From: an uncultured Gemmataceae bacterium
GTDB taxonomy: Bacteria; Planctomycetota; Planctomycetia; Gemmatales; Gemmataceae
NCBI GenBank assembly: GCA_963750165.1
Contig: CAVVPN010000010.1
Span: 224,001-288,000 of the forward strand
DNA: 64,000 nucleotides
Direction of reading: 5' to 3'
The translations under genes were made by a program, and so were the position numbers. The notes beneath the pieces are model-generated. The model was not told the origin of the DNA and searched no databases. It saw only the letters and a list, made by a program, of their open reading frames with translations. This document shows, in pieces, positions 46,108 through 62,387 of the stretch (positions are counted from its first letter, which is position 1; the number at the start of each line of letters is the position of its first letter).

Positions 46108-46404
46108 ATGGCCAGAACCCGACGTACCTACACCCCGGAGTTCAAGCTCGAGGCCGTCAAGCTCGTCACTGAGCAGGGCTACTCCGTCGCCGAGGCCGCA
46201 CGCTCCCTCGGCATCCACGAGACCCTGCTCCGCTCCTGGAAGCAGGCGCTGGAGGCCAAGGGCGGCCAGGCCTTCCCCGGCCAGGGCAAGCTCTCCCCCT
46301 TCGAGGAAGAGAACCGCCGCCTCCGGGCCGAGAACCAGCGGCTCCTGGCGGAGCGCGACATCCTAAAAAAAGCGACGGCGTTCTTCGCCAGGGAGGCGAC
46401 ATGA
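46108..46404 (+). CDS. IS3 transposase OrfA
   Basis: RRTYTPEFKLEAV, ERDILKKATAFF; A7G slippery site at 46365-46372. Confidence 0.95.
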   Translation: MARTRRTYTPEFKLEAVKLVTEQGYSVAEAARSLGIHETLLRSWKQALEAKGGQAFPGQGKLSPFEEENRRLRAENQRLLAERDILKKATAFFAREAT

Positions 46405-47255
46405 CCTTCCGCTTCATCGAGGAACACCGCGGCCAGTGGCCCGTGCGCCTGCTCTGCGAAACCCTGGAGGTCTCGACCGCCGGCTACTACGCCTGGCGCG
46501 ACCGCCCCGCCAGCGACCGCGCCCGGCGCCGCGACACCCTCCTCGTGGAAATCCGCGCCATCCACGCCGAGGTCAAGGCCCGCTACGGCAGCCCGCGCAT
46601 CCACGCCGAGCTGGTCGCCCGGGGCCAGGACTGCTGCGTCAACACCGTGGCCCGGCTCATGCACGACCACGACCTCCGGGCCAAGACGGCCCGCAAGTTC
46701 CGCTGCACGACCGACTCCAACCACGACCTGCCCGTGGCCGCGAACCTCCTGGATCGGCAGTTCAACCCCGCCGCGGCCAACGAGGCGTGGGTGGCGGACA
46801 TCACCTACATCCCGACCCGGGAGGGTTGGCTGTACCTGGCTGTCGTCGAGGACCTGTACTCGCGGCGGGTGGTGGGCTGGTCGATGGCCGACCACCTGGA
46901 GAGCCGGCTGGTCGTCGATGCCCTGGAGCTGGCGGTGCAGCGCCGGCTGCCGGGGGAGGGGTTGCTGGCCCACTCCGACCGGGGCAGCCAGTACGCCAGC
47001 GACCACTACCAACGCCTCCTGGGCAAGCACGGCATCACCTGCAGCATGAGCCGCCGGGCCGACTGCTGGGACAATGCCCCGATGGAGAGCTTCTTCGCCT
47101 CCTTGAAGAAGGAACTGGTGCACGACGCCGACTTCGCCACCCGGGCGGAGGCGCGGGCGGCGCTCGTCGAGTACATCGAGGTCTTCTACAACACGCGGCG
47201 CCGGCACTCGTCGCTGGGGTACGTGTCCCCGGCCGAGTATGAACAGTCCGAATAA
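46401..47255 (+). CDS. IS3 transposase OrfB (DDE)
   Basis: WVADITYI, HSDRGSQY, CWDNAPMESFF. Confidence 0.95.
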   Translation: MTFRFIEEHRGQWPVRLLCETLEVSTAGYYAWRDRPASDRARRRDTLLVEIRAIHAEVKARYGSPRIHAELVARGQDCCVNTVARLMHDHDLRAKTARKFRCTTDSNHDLPVAANLLDRQFNPAAANEAWVADITYIPTREGWLYLAVVEDLYSRRVVGWSMADHLESRLVVDALELAVQRRLPGEGLLAHSDRGSQYASDHYQRLLGKHGITCSMSRRADCWDNAPMESFFASLKKELVHDADFATRAEARAALVEYIEVFYNTRRRHSSLGYVSPAEYEQSE

Positions 47256-52445: not shown

Positions 52446-52473
52446 TTGACAAGTCGGAAGGTTCCGATATAAT
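52446..52473 (+). promoter_or_regulatory. Consensus sigma70 promoter with a palindromic operator in the spacer
   Basis: TTGACA-N16-TATAAT; TCGGAA-GG-TTCCGA at 52454-52467. Confidence 0.8.
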
Positions 52474-52492: not shown

Positions 52493-52813
52493 ATGACCGC
52501 CAAGACGAAAACGCCGCCTGCCCTCACCGACCTGAAAGCTCTGGAACAGGCGGCGGAATGTCTCAAGACTCTGGCCCACCCGCACCGTCTGCGCATGGTC
52601 CAGATGCTCCTGCGAGGCCGCTACACGGTCGGTGAACTGGCCGAGGCGTGCGGCATCCCCAGCCACATGGCCTCTGAACACCTGCGGCTCATGCAGCGAT
52701 GCGGCTTCATGACCAGTGAAAAGGACGGACGCAACGTGTACTACCAAATCGCCGAACCCCACCTGGCGAACATCATGACCTGCATCGAAGCCCGGTTCGG
52801 CGGCACGGGCTGA
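52493..52813 (+). CDS. ArsR/SmtB family regulator
   Basis: LKTLAHPHRLRMV, ASEHLRLM, GRNVYY; 4 Cys. Confidence 0.93.
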   Translation: MTAKTKTPPALTDLKALEQAAECLKTLAHPHRLRMVQMLLRGRYTVGELAEACGIPSHMASEHLRLMQRCGFMTSEKDGRNVYYQIAEPHLANIMTCIEARFGGTG

Positions 52814-52899
52814 ATTTTTTTCGCCTGACGTATCGTAATGTCGGGACATAAACAACAATGAAAGACAATCCCGAACCTGCGACGGGAGGAGGCAGAACG

Positions 52900-53079
52900 A
52901 TGGAAGTCCTGATTCCCCTGGGCGTCCTCCTGATCTGGATCGTCCTGCAAGCCTGGGTGCTGCCACGCCTCGGTGTGAAGACCTGAATGAGCGGAACTTG
53001 CGAGCCGAGTTCGGCTCCTCCCCGTGTCGAGAACCAAAAACCACCAACCGTTTCCGAGGACGAAAGGAGATCGCAGTGA
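52900..53079 (+). CDS. Candidate 59-aa membrane selenoprotein (TGA at 52984-52986 read as Sec)
   Basis: GGAGGAGG RBS; MEVLIPLGVLLIWIVLQAWVLPRLGVKT-U-MSGTC...RRSQ*; readthrough stop overlaps the next GTG start; hairpin at 53002-53017. Confidence 0.6.
53002..53017 (+). promoter_or_regulatory. Candidate bacterial SECIS hairpin
   Basis: GAGCCG-AGTT-CGGCTC; loop starts 21 nt after the UGA and has G at loop position 2. Confidence 0.5.
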
Positions 53080-53648
53080 CCGTCACGACCATCAGCCCTC
53101 AGCAGCTTGCTGAATTGTGCAAGGCCGGGAAGATCGAACTCATTGACGTGCGGACGCCGGTGGAGTTCCGGGAGTTGCACACGACTGTTGCCCGCAATGT
53201 GCCCCTGGACCGGCTCGACCCAGCAGCGATCATGCAGGCCCGCAATGGAAGCAAGGACGAGCCGCTGTACATCATCTGCCGCTCCGGGAGCCGAGGCCAG
53301 AAGGCGTGCGAGAAGTTCCTGGAGGCAGGCTTCTCAAACGTGGTCAACATCGAGGGCGGCACCCTGGCGTGCGTCGAAGCCGGCCTGCCGGTCGTCCGTG
53401 GCAAGAAGGCCATTTCGCTGGAGCGGCAAGTGCGGATTGCGGCGGGATCGCTCGTGCTGCTGGGCGTGCTGCTCGGCTGGTTGGTCCACCCGGCCTTCCT
53501 CGGACTGTCCGCCTTCATCGGGGCCGGGTTGGTGTTCGCCGGCATCACGGATACCTGCGGCATGGGGATGATGCTGGCCCGGATGCCCTGGAACCAGGTC
53601 AAGGATGCCTCGACCGGCTGTTGTGCGACGAAGGAGGTCTGCTCATGA
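53076..53648 (+). CDS. Rhodanese plus DUF2892 (YgaP-like) membrane sulfurtransferase
   Basis: IDVRTPVEF, ICRSGSRG, SLERQVRIAAG, GITDTCGM...MPWN. Confidence 0.92.
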   Translation: MTVTTISPQQLAELCKAGKIELIDVRTPVEFRELHTTVARNVPLDRLDPAAIMQARNGSKDEPLYIICRSGSRGQKACEKFLEAGFSNVVNIEGGTLACVEAGLPVVRGKKAISLERQVRIAAGSLVLLGVLLGWLVHPAFLGLSAFIGAGLVFAGITDTCGMGMMLARMPWNQVKDASTGCCATKEVCS

Positions 53649-55306
53649 AACTGCTCATCGTCGGTGGCGTGGCCGGGGGCGCATCGGCAGCCGCCCGTGC
53701 CCGCCGCCTCTCGGAAGACGCCCACATCATCCTGTTCGAGCGGGGGCCGGACGTGTCGTTCGCCAACTGCGGCCTGCCGTACTACCTGGGCGGCGAGATC
53801 GCCGAGCGGGACAAACTGCTCGTCGTCACGCCGGATCGGCTGCGGACCCGCTTCAACCTCGACGTGCGGGTGCGGACCTCGGTGGAACGAATCGACCGGG
53901 CGGCAAAGAAGGTCCATGCCCGTGACCTCGCTTCGGGCCGGGAGTACGACGAAACCTACGACAAGCTGATCCTCGCCCCAGGAGCGGCACCGCTGCGCCC
54001 GCCGCTGCCCGGCATCGACCTGCCCGGCATCTTCACCCTGCGAAACTTACAAGACGTGGACCGCATCAAGGGCAGGATGGACCAGGGCGTGAAGCAGGCC
54101 GTTGTCATCGGAGCGGGCTTCATCGGCCTGGAACTGGTCGAGAACTTCGTGGGCCGGGGCATTGCAACCACGGTGGTCGAGTTGCAGGACCAGGTGTTGC
54201 CGCCGTTCGACAAGGAGATGACGACGCCCCTCGCCCAGGAGTTGGCGAGCAAGGGCGTGGCGCTGCTGCTCGGCCAATCCGCCGAGTCGTTTGAGTCGGC
54301 CCCCGATGGCTTGGTCGTCCGCCTGAAGTCGGGCCAACGGCTTCCGGCCCAACTGGTCGTCCTCGGAGTCGGCGTGCGCCCGGAGAACAAGCTGGCCGTC
54401 GAGGCGGGCCTGGAGGTCGGCCCCCGTGGCGGCATTCGGGTCAACGAACAACTTCAGACCAGCGACCCGGACATTTATGCAGTCGGTGACGCCATCGAGA
54501 TCAAGGACTTCGTGACGGGCGACTCGACGCAGGTGCCGCTGGCGGGTCCGGCGAACCGCCAGGGCCGCATCGCCGCCGACAACATTTTTGGACGGTCGGC
54601 CCGCTACCGAGGAACCCAGGGCACGGCCATCGTCCGGGTCTTCGACAAGACGGCGGCGATGACCGGCGCTTCGGAGAAGGTGTTGAAGCGGTCGAAGCGC
54701 TCCTACCGCAAGGTCTACGTTCACCCGACGCAGCACGCCGGCTACTATCCCGGTGCCGAGGCAATGACCCTGAAGTTGCTCTTCGACCCGGAGACGGGAA
54801 AGGTGCTGGGGGCGCAGGCCGTGGGTGGTGACGGCGTGGACAAGCGGATCGACGTGCTGGCCGTGGCGATCCAGGCGGGCATGACGGTCTTCGACCTGGA
54901 GGAGATGGAACTGGCCTACTCGCCGCAGTACGGCTCGGCCAAAGACCCGATCAACATGGCGGGCTTCGTGGCGGGCGGGCTGCTCCGAGGCGACCATCCT
55001 CAAGTGGATGTCGAGGCGGTCCTGGCCGCTCCTGCCGGCGAAGCCCCGTACCTCGTGGACGTGCGGACGCCGCAGGAGTATGCAGACGGGCACATCCCCG
55101 GAGCCGTCAATCTCTCGGTGGACGACCTGCGGCCCCGGCTGGGCGAACTGCCCCGTGACCGCCAGATCGCTGTGTACTGTCAGGTAGGGCAGCGGGGCTA
55201 CCTGGCGACTCGCATCTTGAAGCAGGCCGGGTTCCAGACGGCGAACGTCGGCGGCGGATACAAAACCTACCGGCTGCTGCACCCGACATCGAACGGGGTC
55301 CGGTGA
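53645..55306 (+). CDS. CoA-disulfide/persulfide reductase with C-terminal rhodanese
   Basis: GGVAGGASAA, SFANCGLPY, GAGFIG, YSPQYG, rhodanese YCQVGQRGY. Confidence 0.93.
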   Translation: MKLLIVGGVAGGASAAARARRLSEDAHIILFERGPDVSFANCGLPYYLGGEIAERDKLLVVTPDRLRTRFNLDVRVRTSVERIDRAAKKVHARDLASGREYDETYDKLILAPGAAPLRPPLPGIDLPGIFTLRNLQDVDRIKGRMDQGVKQAVVIGAGFIGLELVENFVGRGIATTVVELQDQVLPPFDKEMTTPLAQELASKGVALLLGQSAESFESAPDGLVVRLKSGQRLPAQLVVLGVGVRPENKLAVEAGLEVGPRGGIRVNEQLQTSDPDIYAVGDAIEIKDFVTGDSTQVPLAGPANRQGRIAADNIFGRSARYRGTQGTAIVRVFDKTAAMTGASEKVLKRSKRSYRKVYVHPTQHAGYYPGAEAMTLKLLFDPETGKVLGAQAVGGDGVDKRIDVLAVAIQAGMTVFDLEEMELAYSPQYGSAKDPINMAGFVAGGLLRGDHPQVDVEAVLAAPAGEAPYLVDVRTPQEYADGHIPGAVNLSVDDLRPRLGELPRDRQIAVYCQVGQRGYLATRILKQAGFQTANVGGGYKTYRLLHPTSNGVR

Positions 55307-55350
55307 GCGGGGAATCTCGTCGGAGGCAGCCGGGTATCAGAGGAACGACC

Positions 55351-55965
55351 TTGCGCTTCTACTCCGACGTGATCTTCCCTCGACTTTGCGACCTCCTCCT
55401 GAACAGGCCGCTGGTGGCACGGCACCGGCGACAACTGCTCGCCACGGTCTGCGGCGACGTTCTGGAGGTCGGCTTCGGGACGGGCCTGAACCTGCCGCAC
55501 TATCCCGCCCAGGTCCGCAGGATCACCACGGTCGATCCGAACGCCGGGATGCAACGGCTGGCACAACAGCGTGTCAGAAGGTCCAAGATCGAAGTTGACC
55601 AGCGTGTTCTCAACGGTGAACGTCTCCCCTTCGAGTCTGACCACTTCGATTGCGCCGTCAGCACGTTTACCCTGTGCAGCATTGAGGACGTGGGCCAAGC
55701 CTTGAGCGAAGTGTACCGGGTACTAAAACCGGGAGGTCGCTTCCTGTTCCTGGAGCATGGCCTCAGCCCGGAGCCGAAGGTCCAGAAGTGGCAGCGCCGG
55801 CTGAACTGGCTGGAAAGGTGCCTGGCTGATGGCTGTCGCCTGGACCGCAACATGAAGGAACTGGTCGCCGCCCAGCCCTTCTCGTCCGTGGAAGTCGAAG
55901 AATTCTACCTGGAAAGAACGCCGAGAACGCACGGCTACCTCTACCGGGGCGTTGCCGTCAAATGA
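55351..55965 (+). CDS. Class I SAM-dependent methyltransferase (start could be 55303)
   Basis: VLEVGFGTGLNL, TFTLCSI, LKPGGRFLFLEHG. Confidence 0.88.
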   Translation: MRFYSDVIFPRLCDLLLNRPLVARHRRQLLATVCGDVLEVGFGTGLNLPHYPAQVRRITTVDPNAGMQRLAQQRVRRSKIEVDQRVLNGERLPFESDHFDCAVSTFTLCSIEDVGQALSEVYRVLKPGGRFLFLEHGLSPEPKVQKWQRRLNWLERCLADGCRLDRNMKELVAAQPFSSVEVEEFYLERTPRTHGYLYRGVAVK

Positions 55966-56331
55966 GCATGTCGGCCTTGCCGCTGATCCAAGTCGGCACC
56001 GATCACCTGCTGCCGGACCAAGAGCCGCTGGGGCGAACGCAATCTGGCTGTACAACCAGACCAAATGCGTGAGCCTACTACCGCCTGTTTTTTTCTGAGT
56101 TCTCTTCCTTTTCTCTTCGGTCAGGTGTATGATTCTGATAACCTTCAACTACATTTCACTGACTTCCAAATCACAACACATTACTGCCAGGAATTCCGGG
56201 TTGCGAGCAAAAGGACGTTGCCCCGGCAATGATGCCGAAAACGGAACAATCCTCCGAATGCCTACACGGAGATTCAATAAGTGGCAATGTCGTTGATCTT
56301 TGAAAAGTCACGGTCGAAAAGTCTTTGGGCT

Positions 56332-57484
56332 TATTACCACGGCATGAAAGTTGCTCAAAAGTCCGTTGGGAGAATAACCGCGACACTCCGAGACGGAGAC
56401 TGCTCATGTCCATCCAGTTACCTGACGCCCGCCAGTTGTCGGATGAAGCCCTCCAGGTGCTGCGTCTGCGCGCCTTACGGGGGATCGAGTTGGGCTACTC
56501 CGAGTTGGATCTCGCCGAACTCCTGGGCGTCTGCCACGAAACCATCAGTCGCTGGTGGACGGCCTACGTCGCCGACGGCCTGTCTGCCCTGCCCGGCGGT
56601 CGCAGCGGCCGGCCGCTCGGTTCCGGGCGCTACTTGTCCGACCCGCAGGCCGAGCGCATCCGGGCGTGCATCGACCTGCACTCCCCGGAGGAAGTGGGCA
56701 TCCCGCACGCCTTGTGGACGCGCCGCGCCGTGCGCGACCTGATCCGCCAGGAGTTCGGCATCGACCTGGCCGAGCGCACCGTCGGCGCGTACTTGCGCCG
56801 CTGGGGTTACACCTCCAAGAAACCGAGCCGGCACGCGCGGCAGCAGGATCCCGACGCGGTCGAGGAGTGGTTGCTGGAAACCTACCCCGCCATCGAAGCC
56901 CAGGCTGAGCGCGAGCAGGCGGAAATTCTGTGGACCGATGAGGTCGGCGTGGCGGCCGATCACCACCCCGGTTACGGCTACGCCCGCCTCGGAGCACGCG
57001 CGACGATGGAGGTGCCTAAGCCCCACCTCCGGGTCAACCAGATTTCGGCCATCAGCAACGAGGGGACGGTACGGTTCATGACTTACCAGGGCGCGCTCGA
57101 CGCGGCGGTGTTCCTGATGTTCTTGACCAAGCTGATCGCAGGGGCGACGCGGAAGATGCTGCTGATCGCGGATCGGCTGCAAGCCCACAAGACGCCGGCG
57201 GTACAGGCCTGGGTGGAGGCGCACCGGGACCAGATCGAGGTGTTTTATCTGCCGGCGTATTCGCCGGAGTTGAACCCAGTGGAGTATTTGAACAACGACA
57301 TGAAGGGTACGGTGAACGAGGCGGGCCTGCCGCCCGACCGGCCGACGTTGCAGGGCCGGTTGTTGGACTTCATGAAACGCTTGGTTCGGGTGCCGGATCA
57401 TGTGATAAGTTACTTTCTACATCCGTGGACTCGGTACGCTGCCCCGGTAGAATTGATTTGATCTTATTTCGTGCCGGGGTAATA
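56332..57484 (+). mobile_element. IS630 family insertion sequence
   Basis: Ends TATTACCACGGCATGAAA and TTTCGTGCCGGGGTAATA, flanked by a TA duplication. Confidence 0.92.
56406..57461 (+). CDS. IS630 transposase
   Basis: HTH, WTDE, ADRLQAH, LPAYSPELNPVE. Confidence 0.95.
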   Translation: MSIQLPDARQLSDEALQVLRLRALRGIELGYSELDLAELLGVCHETISRWWTAYVADGLSALPGGRSGRPLGSGRYLSDPQAERIRACIDLHSPEEVGIPHALWTRRAVRDLIRQEFGIDLAERTVGAYLRRWGYTSKKPSRHARQQDPDAVEEWLLETYPAIEAQAEREQAEILWTDEVGVAADHHPGYGYARLGARATMEVPKPHLRVNQISAISNEGTVRFMTYQGALDAAVFLMFLTKLIAGATRKMLLIADRLQAHKTPAVQAWVEAHRDQIEVFYLPAYSPELNPVEYLNNDMKGTVNEAGLPPDRPTLQGRLLDFMKRLVRVPDHVISYFLHPWTRYAAPVELI

Positions 57485-58472: not shown

Positions 58473-58787
58473 CTATTTCATCAGCAACAGCATCATGACC
58501 ACCTGCGTCTTCACCTGGATGGTGTGGCGCAGGCCCGTTGGCATGTGGACCCAGGTGCCGGGCTTCGCCTCGTGCTTGTCGTCGCCCAGCGTCACCGTCG
58601 CCTCCCCCTGAAGGAAGTGCAAGACGGCGGGCATTGAGGCGGTGTGTTCGGATAGCTCTTCGCCCTGGCCGAAGCCGAAGATCACTACCTTCAGTCGGTC
58701 GTCGTTGAACAGGGTGCGGCTGAGGATTCCCTTTTCGGGCGGCTGGACTTCCTTCGCCAGATCGACGAACAGCGTGTAGTCGGTCAT
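58473..58787 (-). CDS. Cupin domain protein
   Basis: GEELSEHTA...LQGEA...HTI. Confidence 0.88.
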   Translation of the reverse strand: MTDYTLFVDLAKEVQPPEKGILSRTLFNDDRLKVVIFGFGQGEELSEHTASMPAVLHFLQGEATVTLGDDKHEAKPGTWVHMPTGLRHTIQVKTQVVMMLLLMK

Positions 58788-58792
58788 GACCT

Positions 58793-59338
58793 TCAGCCTC
58801 CTTCGAGCGCCTGCTCCCACCCGACCACTTCGTTGCCGAAATTCTCGTGCAAACTGGTCAGCCCTCGTTCCTTCTCGACCTGCGAGAAACGACCCGTCAC
58901 GTCGGCATCGTCAGCCTCGCTCATCACCCGTTCGGCCATGTGGAAGAGGACGTTGTTCTCCTTGAAGATGTGCTGGCGTAGCAAGGGGATATACTGCCGG
59001 GCAGCGTCAACAAAGGTTTGGGCGTCGAACGGCTGCGCCTGGCTCGCCTCACGCATCCGGCCCACGCAGTCCCGGCCCAGGACATGCTCGTGAAGCATGA
59101 CGCCAATCGGCCCGCCCTGTTCGGGGATGCCTCGTTTCTTGAGGACAGGGAAGAACACGTCCTCTTCCTTGGCATGGTGGCACTGGTCGGCAAACTGCTG
59201 GAAGAACCGGGCTGCCCACTCCGAGAAACCAGCAGGGAGGGACTGTCCCGCTTCGAGACATGCCACGGCTTTTTCGAGCAGGCTCAGGCCACGTTCGATC
59301 AGGTCGTGTTCGGTTTTCAGACGCTCGACGGCTTTCAT
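58793..59338 (-). CDS. Hemerythrin/HHE domain protein
   Basis: EHDLI, CHHAKEEDVFF, EH, QHIFKENNVLF. Confidence 0.9.
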   Translation of the reverse strand: MKAVERLKTEHDLIERGLSLLEKAVACLEAGQSLPAGFSEWAARFFQQFADQCHHAKEEDVFFPVLKKRGIPEQGGPIGVMLHEHVLGRDCVGRMREASQAQPFDAQTFVDAARQYIPLLRQHIFKENNVLFHMAERVMSEADDADVTGRFSQVEKERGLTSLHENFGNEVVGWEQALEGG

Positions 59339-59389
59339 GACGACCTCTTTGATTCACGTCAGCCTCTCGGCTGTGCGTAGGACGCCTTC

Positions 59390-61654
59390 TCACGGAACCG
59401 CATCCAGTTCTTTCCTTGGCACAACAGGCTCATTCTCCCCCGTTCGGATCGAATGGCCTGTCTTCAGCCCAGCCACGAACCACACCAGGGCGACGGCTCC
59501 CAGGGCGAAGATGGTGTCGCCAGGTACACGCAGCCAGCGAAGAGTCTGCATGACCTCGGTGTGCATAAACTCTGGACTGCGAGCGTACCAGTAGCCTTTT
59601 TCGACCGAAGCCCAGGTCTGCATCAACCCGACCGGCAAGAGGCTGATGACGCACATCGCCATCAGGCCGATGTTCATGGACCAAAATGCGAACTTGAGAG
59701 TTCCTTCTTTCCACACGAGGCCCGGCAGAAGCGCCCGCAGGCACATGAGCATCAGGCCGATTCCCAGCATCCCGTAGACGCCGAAGAGGGCGGCATGGGC
59801 GTGTACTGGAGTCGTGTTCAAGCCTTGCATGTAGTAGAGGGCAATCGGCGGGTTAATCATGAAGCCGAACAACCCGGCCCCGACCATGTTCCAGAAGGCC
59901 ACGGCCACGAAGAAGTAGATCGGCCACTTGTACTTCTGGACCCAGGGGGTCGCTTTCGACATGCGCAGGTCTTCCAGGGCGGGATAGGCGACCAGAATCA
60001 GCGGCACGACCTCCAGGGCGCTGAACACCGATCCCCAGGCCAGCGCCACCGTGGGAGTCCCCGCAAAATACAGATGGTGCAGCGTGCCGATGATGCCGCC
60101 CGCCAGGAAGATCGTGGCCGACAGCAAGGAAGCCTGGGCAGCCAAACGAGGCGTGACCAGGTTGAGCCGGTAGAAGAAGAAAGCGATTACCGTGGTCGCA
60201 AAGACCTCGAAGAACCCTTCCACCCACAGGTGAATCACCCACCAGCGCCAGTATTCCACAATCGACAGATGGGTGTGCTGGCCCCAGGTGAGGCCGGCAC
60301 CGTAGAACAGGCCAATGGCGGTCGAGGCCATCAAGAAAATCAGGAGCAAGTGCCGCTGTTCGCCGGACTTCTTCAAGGCCGGAACGACCACTCGCACGAC
60401 CAGCGCCAACCAGAGCAGCAGGCCGACGAAGAGGCCGATCTGCCAGACCCGGCCCAGGTCGATGTACTCGTAGCCCTGGTGTCCGAAGTAGAAGGAGGCG
60501 CTCGGCGAGAGTTGGTTCTGGATGCTCAACCACTGACCGGCCATCGACCCGACCACGACCACCAGCAGGGCCACGAACAGGATGTTGACGCCGAGCCGCT
60601 GGCCGGCTGGTTCCGACCCGCTGACCAGCGGCCCAATGAACAGCCCAGCGGCGAGCCACGCCGTCGCAATCCAAAGCACGCCGAGTTGAAGGTGCCACGT
60701 CCGAGTCACGCTGTAGGGAAGCCATTTCGAGAGAGGAATGCCATAAAAGCCGTCGCCCTCGACCCCGTAATGAGCGGTGACGACGCCGAGCAGGATTTGC
60801 ACGAGGATCATTGCCGCCACGACCCAAAAATACTTGACCGTGGCTAGCTGTGACGGCGTGGCCTTCCAGCCAACGATGGGATCGGCTTCGGGAACCGGCC
60901 CCGTGGGGCGTTCCTGCGTTTGCGAGGCGTACCACCAAACCATCGCTCCGATCCCGGCGAGCAGCATGATGACGCTCACGCCGGTCCAGACCACGGCCTC
61001 GCCGGTCGGGCGATTGCTGACCAGCGGCTCATGCGGCCAGTTGCTCGTGTAGGAAAGGTCGGCCCCAGGGCGGTTGGTGGACGCCGCCCAGGAGGTCCAG
61101 AAGAAGAAAGCGGCCAACTGGCGCAGCTTGTCCGGGTCGCTCTGCGCTCCTTTGGGGATGGCATAGTTCGTGTTGCCGTTGCCGAACACGTCGGCGTAGT
61201 GCCGCAGGTTCGACTCGAACGCCCTGGCTCGCACCGGGTCCACGGTGATCGTATGCTTGGCGGGATCGAACGTGTTCGTGCGCATCAGGCGTTCAAGACG
61301 CTTCTGAAGTTGGGCTTGCTGTTCTGGCTCGATCTGGTCGTATTCCTTCCGGTAGGTCGCCGTGGCCCAATCGTTGAGGATGAACACGCATTCCCGGTGC
61401 AGCCAGTCCGCCGACCAGTCCGGTGCGACGTAGCTGCCGTGGCCCCAAATCGACCCAACCTCCATGCCGCCCATCGCCTGCCAGACGTTCTGCCCTTTCC
61501 CGATGTCGCCGCCTGGGATGACCACCTGGCCGTCCGTGGCGACGACTTGATCCGGGATCGGCGGCTGTTCCTGGTAGATGCGGGTGCCGACCCAGCCAAG
61601 AACGGAGAAGGAAGCCAGGACCACGATGCCAAAGGCCAGCCAGAGTTTCTTCAT
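59390..61654 (-). CDS. norB: Quinol-dependent nitric oxide reductase (qNor)
   Basis: GSIWGHGSYVAPDW, RTWHLQ, WVIHLWVEGFFE, GTLHHLY, HAHAALFGVYG; 754 aa. Confidence 0.96.
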   Translation of the reverse strand: MKKLWLAFGIVVLASFSVLGWVGTRIYQEQPPIPDQVVATDGQVVIPGGDIGKGQNVWQAMGGMEVGSIWGHGSYVAPDWSADWLHRECVFILNDWATATYRKEYDQIEPEQQAQLQKRLERLMRTNTFDPAKHTITVDPVRARAFESNLRHYADVFGNGNTNYAIPKGAQSDPDKLRQLAAFFFWTSWAASTNRPGADLSYTSNWPHEPLVSNRPTGEAVVWTGVSVIMLLAGIGAMVWWYASQTQERPTGPVPEADPIVGWKATPSQLATVKYFWVVAAMILVQILLGVVTAHYGVEGDGFYGIPLSKWLPYSVTRTWHLQLGVLWIATAWLAAGLFIGPLVSGSEPAGQRLGVNILFVALLVVVVGSMAGQWLSIQNQLSPSASFYFGHQGYEYIDLGRVWQIGLFVGLLLWLALVVRVVVPALKKSGEQRHLLLIFLMASTAIGLFYGAGLTWGQHTHLSIVEYWRWWVIHLWVEGFFEVFATTVIAFFFYRLNLVTPRLAAQASLLSATIFLAGGIIGTLHHLYFAGTPTVALAWGSVFSALEVVPLILVAYPALEDLRMSKATPWVQKYKWPIYFFVAVAFWNMVGAGLFGFMINPPIALYYMQGLNTTPVHAHAALFGVYGMLGIGLMLMCLRALLPGLVWKEGTLKFAFWSMNIGLMAMCVISLLPVGLMQTWASVEKGYWYARSPEFMHTEVMQTLRWLRVPGDTIFALGAVALVWFVAGLKTGHSIRTGENEPVVPRKELDAVP

Positions 61655-61743
61655 GGACGCACTTCCTTCGAGTACCCGAACTCGACTTTATCGGTGCTAT
61701 TTGAATGAGTACCGAACCGACCCGCACGAGCTACGCCCTTTGC

Positions 61744-62340
61744 TCAGGCCACGGAAACCAGCGCCGGGCTTTCCTGGTAGTGGCGGTTGATGAGGTCGTT
61801 TTGCAGCCAGAGCAACTTGCCAAAAGCCCGCAGCGTTCGGATTTCCTGCCCCCGCTCCAAGTTCAGGCTCAAAATCGTGTTGGTCAGGGCGTCGGCAACA
61901 AAGCCGAGCAGCGCATTCATTTGCACCAGGGGCACGGCGAGTTCTTTGGCCCCTGCCTTCGACGTGTGCATCTTCCCGACCGTATCGAGGTAGGCGACCA
62001 TCTTCTCGTCGTAGGGTTTGCTGACGAGTGCAGTCAGGTAGCGGGCAAGGTGTTCCTTCCGGTAGCGAATCATCTCGTGGTCTTGGGTCACTTCATCGAG
62101 AGATTTCGGCACGACCCCTTCGTAGCCGGTCTGCCGAGGGAGGAAATGTCTCCAGGTGGCGTCGTAGCGGTAAAGTTGATCGTAGACGGCATTCACCAGC
62201 GCTGGTACGACCGGGGCGAGGGCGGACGCAGCGGCATGAATCGCAGCGATGTCCTCCGCACCAAATCCGATGAACTCGGACGTGTACCGGAAGCGATAGG
62301 TGAGGTCCGACTCAAGGCGTTTTTCGTTGACGTGAATCAT
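61744..62340 (-). CDS. Protoglobin-like single-domain globin
   Basis: EFIGFGAEDIAAI, VNAVYDQL, YLDTVGKMHT (proximal His), KLLWLQNDL. Confidence 0.85.
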   Translation of the reverse strand: MIHVNEKRLESDLTYRFRYTSEFIGFGAEDIAAIHAAASALAPVVPALVNAVYDQLYRYDATWRHFLPRQTGYEGVVPKSLDEVTQDHEMIRYRKEHLARYLTALVSKPYDEKMVAYLDTVGKMHTSKAGAKELAVPLVQMNALLGFVADALTNTILSLNLERGQEIRTLRAFGKLLWLQNDLINRHYQESPALVSVA

Positions 62341-62387
62341 CGGTGTTCCTCCAGGACATTCGGGTTGACGGCGGGCAGCCAAAGCCG

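Follow-up and report, generated by a model that had tools for sequence, protein, structure and literature searches.

The window, by which we mean the whole 64,000-nucleotide stretch of the uncultured Gemmataceae bacterium analysed here, carries a compact run of plus-strand genes headed by a regulator. A sigma-70-type promoter, TTGACA-16-TATAAT (52446-52473), matches the consensus at 12/12 positions (0.1 such matches expected), and a palindromic site, GTCG-N8-CGAT (52453-52468), lies between its hexamers, where it might serve as an operator; judged by eye, the same arrangement stands upstream of arsR in most of 35 relatives. An ArsR/SmtB-family repressor gene follows (52493-52813; NF033788, 80.5 bits against a cut-off of 55), with the conserved cysteines C23, C53, C70 and C97. 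BigR-type identity was not recovered for this repressor, which scores 50.7 bits on NF040642 against a cut-off of 155. In our alignment it also lacks a Cys at what we take to be the usual BigR helix-2 position. A terminator-like hairpin with a T-run was seen at the end of arsR (52793-52823); relatives conserve the T-run that follows the stop codon of arsR, which hints at a separate transcript for the small gene and the genes downstream. A degenerate second operator-like site (52832-52847) lies upstream of the small gene, and since the loose operator pattern matches 110 places in the host genome, only its position, conserved in many spacers between arsR and the small gene, is informative.

The small gene occupies 52900-53079 of the plus strand and is preceded by the ribosome-binding site GGAGGAGG (52885-52892), 7 nt 5' of the ATG at 52900; a purine-rich site precedes the start codon in most homologs. 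Twenty-eight codons lead to an in-frame TGA at codon 29 (52984-52986) and 30 open codons follow it, among them the codon of Cys34 (52999-53001), which homolog alignment marks as a partner residue at +5. The final TGA (53077-53079) overlaps the GTG (53076) of the next gene. The original prediction described each of these elements and read codon 29 as selenocysteine (U29) in a hidden 59-residue membrane protein; the elements are all in the sequence as described. So is the bacterial SECIS-type hairpin GAGCCG-AGTT-CGGCTC (53002-53017), the loop of which (53008-53011) lies 21 nt after the UGA and has G at its second position. Contigs from the RNA libraries of relatives cover the small gene, one of them spanning 52721-53236, such contigs being no read-outs of transcription or readthrough.

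Next in the run is a gene for a rhodanese joined to a YgaP-like transmembrane protein (53076-53648; PF00581, PF11127), with the active-site motif CRSGSR, a Cys that is invariant in the aligned membrane domains and its own AAGGAG site. It is followed by a fusion of CoA-disulfide reductase with rhodanese (53645-55306; TIGR03385, 480.9 bits, below the 578.8 cut-off; PF00581 at residues 465-542), which has the architecture of a CoA-persulfide reductase. A class I SAM methyltransferase gene (55303-55965; PF08241) ends the run. The small gene had been placed in a persulfide operon, and the host operon does contain a rhodanese together with a putative persulfide-clearing enzyme. A third arsR and rhodanese-YgaP pair of the host (G000:C3:919367-920247) has the same promoter-like and operator-like sites and no small gene.

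The host genome also contains a second copy of the operon (L042, G000:C1:477112-483452), which is in decay and about 91% identical. In this copy the Trp19 codon of the small gene has become TGA, about 3.5 kb of repeated transposase-like ORFs are inserted after arsR, and the CoADR gene contains a stop. Around the operon itself, at 46108-47255 and 56325-57461, there are transposase-like ORFs, which we take to be an IS3-like pair and an IS630-like one; their position on both sides of the region suggests a mobile island. On the minus strand, at 58473-62382, genes for a protoglobin, a quinol-type nitric oxide reductase, a hemerythrin and a cupin likely form an NO/oxygen stress cluster near the operon.

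A TGA-containing match (E <= 2e-6) was found in 56 of 150 sampled genomes from the order of the host, and TGA stood at codon 29 in 31/31 of the order's loci in which the codon was read. Starting from the pre-TGA motif alone, a contig scan confirmed 119 loci, and among the best 80 of these the site was TGA in every one; the record titles were mostly from Planctomycetota (Gemmataceae, Pirellulaceae and others), and a few bore the labels of Myxococcota, Acidobacteriota and other groups. Across 112 distinct stop-bearing loci the codon is always TGA, never TAA or TAG, and the terminal stops vary (73 TGA, 25 TAA and 14 TAG). The reading frame stays free of stops for 15 codons in 112/112 loci, the other two frames in 67/112 and 36/112. 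Cys is kept at +5 in 108/112 loci and is written as TGC in 76 and TGT in 32, Gly at +3 uses all four of its codons, and yet the third positions of codons +7 to +9 are nearly fixed. Such frozen wobble beside free wobble is a signature of RNA structure laid over a coding frame. Codon analysis of the same loci places the helix and the LPxxGxxT linker under protein-level constraint. Conservation past the TGA, which had been named as a check, thus appears in both frame and codon pattern across 112 loci that are kin rather than independent; those found with the read-through peptide are biased toward such conservation.

Several aberrant copies were met in this survey. One degenerating copy (L013/L101) has Ser in place of Cys34, a weaker hairpin and an early TAA. 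Copies resembling those of planctomycetes (L069, L071, L072, L074, L076 and L085) turned up in assemblies that bear the labels Chitinophaga, Kuenenia, Eisenbacteria, Nitrosopumilus and Alcaligenaceae, and represent either mis-binned contigs or transfer.

A profile search of 1.84 billion representatives returned 1029 protein matches at E <= 0.001. Among the best 150 of them, three of which were re-read by eye for this tally, the site is occupied by Cys in 96, by Trp in 7 and by some other residue in 6, and the remaining 41 stop immediately ahead of it; the Trp rows presumably reflect TGA read under another code. As the original prediction expected, gene callers cut the product short at 28 residues or overlook the small gene altogether. 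At the DNA level, TGC or TGT occupies the site in 6 genomic and 12 metagenomic loci. Cys therefore aligns to the TGA, as had been anticipated, and the adverse outcome, in which all homologs end at the TGA and none has Cys, did not occur. The Cys homologs continue after the site with the same M-S-G-x-C, keep Cys at +5 in 91 of 94 proteins and average 2.7 Cys per protein, many having extra ones; the residues that the hairpin encodes in TGA forms (PSS or PRSR) are free to vary in them. On this comparison, the 59-residue product very probably belongs to a family that exists in both Sec and Cys versions. A 34-residue tree of the family required 23 Sec/Cys changes against at least 85 with shuffled labels, and it is too short to fix their number or direction.

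A second protein search yielded 1623 proteins, and each of the 120 listed entries that has a genuine name from its source is called 'hypothetical protein'. Neither the host protein nor any of 24 homologs and 89 Cys-form members came near a cut-off in NCBIfam 20.0 or Pfam. Foldseek gave 0 matches against the PDB, the sequences of which matched only at E >= 0.47, and in the ESM Atlas the sole relative was an unnamed 123-member cluster at 0.89. Fused forms were sought among 7999 scored candidates, of which four were longer matches, none with a Pfam domain, and this is weak evidence.

Taken alone, the host hairpin is unremarkable (z from -0.9 to -1.8); it is the centroid of the 47-nt fold, and a different pairing forms the minimum-energy fold. 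The case for it therefore rests on comparison. The bSECIS consensus asks for a loop of 3-9 nt with G(G/U) in its first two positions, at a spacing of 16-37 nt (section 5 of PMC13188914), and we applied the rules published in that section in a script of our own (stem of at least 4 pairs, energy <= -7.5 kcal/mol). In this implementation the host hairpin qualifies, with a 4-nt loop, 6 pairs, a distance of 21 nt and -9.5 kcal/mol. The conserved SECIS-type hairpin named as a further check was likewise recovered, 105 of the 112 TGA loci passing our script with hairpins at <= -5 kcal/mol, against none of the 6 genomic Cys loci. As a control, a hairpin follows 16% of 1500 TGA stops of long host ORFs. 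Weak hairpins occur in 7/12 metagenomic Cys loci (five of -4.9 at 16 nt and two of -5.1 at 31 nt), and none of the 12 has one at the family's spacing of 20-24 nt. The spacing is 21 or 22 nt in 85 TGA loci; stems vary in sequence between clades, and the loop, the spacing and the pairing persist. Because the hairpin occurs in two registers one base apart, with AGUU and GGUC loops, RNAalifold gave no consensus on a fixed 30-sequence DNA alignment, and a single-register count on 30 aligned sequences showed 72% pairing, no better than shuffles. Per-sequence rule testing was thus used in place of covariation.

The host genome also holds the machinery on which the prediction depended: selA, selB, selC (tRNA-Sec) and selD were each found above the cut-off. 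Moreover, it contains three UGA genes of known selenoprotein type, two peroxiredoxin-like (UxxC) genes and one for a formate dehydrogenase alpha subunit (G000:C12:1195647-1196036, C3:2187524-2187874 and C3:1169622-1170353), each with an in-frame UGA and a hairpin. These hairpins lie at 18, 21 and 26 nt, so that the geometry of the small gene is the host's own. A motif scan for further host selenoproteins returned mostly noise.

Matches to the small gene were found in 39 of 401 sampled genomes of the phylum, misses being likely at 16 scored candidates per genome; the counts of TGA-form and Cys-form genomes leave out G295, whose match stops at model position 29, as well as the weakly matching G273 and G305 (both with E about 5e-4). 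In this sample selA is present in 28 of 30 TGA-form genomes, six of which were counted from the TGA tally of the match with the codon unread, and in 0 of 6 Cys-form genomes, against a background of 268/401. Either selA or selB is present in 29/30 TGA-form genomes, and neither was found in any of the six Cys-form genomes; these six come from three genera only, so the co-occurrence with the Sec trait is to be read as a pattern and not as a statistic. Within the host's order, selA occurs in 139/151 genomes, including 54 of the 56 with the TGA form (the other two have selB), and at such frequency the test is uninformative. The tRNA-Sec search separates genomes poorly, as two Cys-form genomes scored 49-50 bits, just above the cut-off (a clear tRNA-Sec scores about 72 bits). 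The one exception among the TGA forms, G483, is near-complete, 24 kb being withheld, and lacks selA and selB. Its copy (L127, G483:C1:3108503-3108658), which has a weak hairpin and sits between a dioxygenase-rhodanese gene and DUF1641-sqr, may have been recently acquired or orphaned.

The invariant TGA, the Cys forms, the hairpin, the host machinery and the tracking of selA by the TGA form all support the original reading. In our opinion, comparative evidence makes it almost certain that UGA codon 29 is a selenocysteine codon, which the host SelA/B/C/D would decode via the hairpin 21 nt downstream.

The product would consist of a helix at about residues 4-24, the LPxxGxxT linker, the segment U29-M-S-G-T-C34 and a low-complexity tail. 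AlphaFold models a single helix spanning residues 4-24 (mean pLDDT 75), with a tail that is unstructured, and hydropathy peaks at 2.5. In 171 Cys forms the mean number of K/R residues is 2.1 just past the helix and 0.5 before it, a charge bias that suggests an N-out/C-in orientation. Ten residues, W13, L16, W19, L21, P22, G25, T28, U29, C34 and P36, are invariant in an alignment of 29 sequences. The protein is thus likely to be anchored by a single N-terminal membrane helix with N-out/C-in topology, and to have a flexible tail that presents the U-x4-C pair on the cytoplasmic side, next to the membrane. Such a build recalls the eukaryotic SELENOK and SELENOS, single-pass membrane proteins with Sec in a disordered cytoplasmic tail, the latter of which forms a Se-S bond with a nearby Cys. 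We regard this as an analogy of working only: the small protein is likewise predicted to be single-pass with Sec in a cytoplasmic tail, but Pfam scans give no sequence relationship, the small gene has a bacterial SECIS, and its Sec is membrane-proximal, while that of SELENOK and SELENOS lies near the C-terminus.

The neighbours of the small gene were surveyed in 118 distinct loci with flanks of 1.5-4 kb. Rhodanese was found in 44, YgaP in 37, ArsR in 37, CoADR in 27, an ECF sigma factor in 21, a membrane-fusion protein in 20, AcrB in 19, zf-HC2 in 19 and a metallo-beta-lactamase in 11; SQR (8), thioredoxin (8) and YeeE (4) were rarer. A sulfur set (rhodanese, YgaP, CoADR-rhodanese, SQR, metallo-beta-lactamase-rhodanese, YeeE, SulP, DUF302 and DUF1641) is represented in 52/118 loci, or 57/118 when thioredoxin is added; as background, a rhodanese domain is found within such a distance of 0.2-0.5% of host positions. 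In a broad phylum sample, a sulfur-set neighbour was found in only 11/29 loci, and 38/118 loci have none of the queried neighbours. Four Cys-form genes lie between a persulfide-dioxygenase-type (dioxygenase-rhodanese) gene and sqr, and metagenomic Cys forms adjoin ArsR, thioredoxin, DsbD-thioredoxin or AcrB-Usp. With no universal neighbour, and with the host's arsR-rhodanese pair that does without it, the small gene looks accessory. In about 16 loci the small gene adjoins the gene of an unnamed protein of 160-230 aa that has a signal peptide and a number of conserved His residues; it is upstream in L029, L035, L075, L080, L087, L091 and L092, has no Pfam match and is found mostly in loci with ECF sigma, zf-HC2 and RND genes.

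From this neighbourhood we are inclined, on balance, to see the small protein as a membrane-tethered relay of sulfane sulfur, in line with the proposed role as a sulfur carrier or redox partner, a role that is not tied to the host's operon type alone. In such a scenario, the selenolate would attack the sulfur of a polysulfide or persulfide formed at the membrane and transfer this sulfur to one of two acceptors, the rhodanese/YgaP protein or a low-molecular-weight thiol; from the latter it might be cleared by CoA-persulfide reductase or persulfide dioxygenase. U29 would then be reset through a Se-S ring with Cys34, to be reduced by thioredoxin or the flavin reductase. The protein would thus be an accessory of ArsR- or ECF-controlled sulfide-stress modules and not an obligate subunit. 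Published work on related systems fits these steps: sqr-pdo-rhodanese operons detoxify sulfide (PMC9163753), CoAPR clears CoA persulfide (PMC9405070), and Sec is catalytic in a polysulfide reductase (PMC13510729).

RND pump genes stand beside 24/118 loci, 17 of which have no sulfur-set or thioredoxin gene in view, and in about 20 loci the small gene is directly upstream of membrane-fusion and AcrB genes. This raises another reading, in which the selenoprotein binds soft metals or metalloids through U and C as ligands, or regulates a membrane transporter as its accessory, either as the AcrZ-like helix of an RND pump or in partnership with a P-type ATPase. P-type ATPase, ArsM-like methyltransferase and zf-HC2 anti-sigma neighbours, AcrB with Usp beside three Cys loci, and the extra Cys of many Cys forms (the mean of 2.7 given above) would suit it. 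Indeed, AcrZ is also a small single helix of about 50 aa that acts as a pump accessory, but it has no conserved redox pair, and no Pfam match links the small protein to it. Sulfur-handling neighbours occur in more loci than pumps do, SQR, YgaP or thioredoxin is present in several of the RND loci as well, and Sec-Cys exchange at one of two conserved residues, as seen here, is the usual signature of redox catalysis. Overall, we consider a transporter accessory rather unlikely.

Thioredoxin or DsbD-thioredoxin genes adjoin several Sec and Cys loci, and together with the 38 loci devoid of any queried neighbour they are compatible with a general redox module, anchored in the membrane, that acts on thiol-disulfide or peroxide chemistry with thioredoxin or DsbD at its service and was placed in sulfide operons of some lineages only. 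Genes specific to persulfide are strongly enriched in the Sec clades and the Cys clades alike, which speaks against such a module, and we give it a low probability. It is also quite improbable that the gene is mainly regulatory, a selenium-sensing leader ORF whose readthrough couples downstream translation to Sec availability. The terminal stop does overlap the next start in 39/112 TGA loci, including that of the host, but 73/112 have no overlap, the Cys forms keep the motif and 3/6 of their loci the overlap, the host rhodanese gene has a ribosome-binding site of its own, and the helix and linker are constrained at the protein level. Finally, the TGA might be a real stop, in which case the gene would either make a peptide of 28 aa or be the pseudogene remnant of an ancestor with Cys, and a conserved RNA element or an ATG restart would come next. 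This is very unlikely: ATG does follow the TGA in 70/112 loci and G483 has the TGA form without Sec machinery, but the non-ATG codons in the remaining loci (CTG, CTA, CTT, GCG etc.; non-start codons in about 40) argue against restart, as the absence of TAA and TAG, the Cys homologs that carry on with M-S-G-x-C, the loss of the hairpin in Cys forms and the tracking of selA argue against a stop.

It is also important to compare the family with described systems. With the bacterial selenoproteins covered in PMC13188914 it shares the in-frame UGA, the hairpin geometry, the Cys homologs and the Sec-utilising hosts, yet Table 1 of this 2026 review, with its 119 families, has no entry with U-x4-C or a single-helix build of 55-70 aa, and the string 'UxxxxC' is absent from the review text. 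None of the new deep-Sep families in section 7 of PMC12013277 fits the small protein, and NCBIfam 20.0, which holds models for many catalogued selenoprotein families, has none for it. Among the candidates in Table S9 of a study on planctomycetes (PMC4807772) is a 'hypothetical' one that has both a Cys homolog and a SECIS. A further parallel is the Tso operon, where, according to the relevant part of PMC13188914, the selenoproteins TsoA/B/C/X/Y cluster with an ArsR-type regulator and rhodanese/DsbD-like parts, and TsoB, a rhodanese/DsbD-like fusion with UxxxxU, shows the same five-residue spacing. However, no Tso protein model matches the small protein, the host operon has one selenoprotein, and the host ArsR reaches 41.3 bits with the TsoR model, for which the cut-off is 115. 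Neighbours of the types known from sqr-pdo-rhodanese and cst-like (CoAPR) operons accompany both Sec and Cys loci, but the accessible sections of the respective papers (PMC9163753, PMC9405070) do not mention a small Sec/Cys membrane protein, and the host regulator is of ArsR type but not BigR by cut-off. Since the literature that we searched yielded no description of a small U-x4-C membrane selenoprotein, the family is probably undescribed so far.

Our results point to an apparently new family of selenoproteins, whose U-x4-C motif is unlisted and whose members, anchored in the membrane, are unusually small; the family is common within a single planctomycete order and is also met in other lineages. 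The reality of this micro-selenoprotein family, apparently uncatalogued, is well supported by sequence comparison, and the function proposed for it is plausible. Since Sec and Cys versions occur naturally in operons of one kind and the active part is a short peptide, the family offers a simple system for studying the role of selenium in persulfide chemistry. It is also a candidate sulfur acceptor beside SQR and rhodanese. More tentatively, and with some doubt, it is tempting to suppose that the family as a whole is a widespread, uncatalogued, single-pass sulfur shuttle of about 60 residues, tethered to the membrane, in which Sec and Cys have switched repeatedly in step with the Sec trait. On this reading, the shuttle would be the missing immediate acceptor, carrying sulfane sulfur between sulfide oxidation in the membrane and rhodanese, dioxygenase or CoA-persulfide reductase in the cytoplasm.
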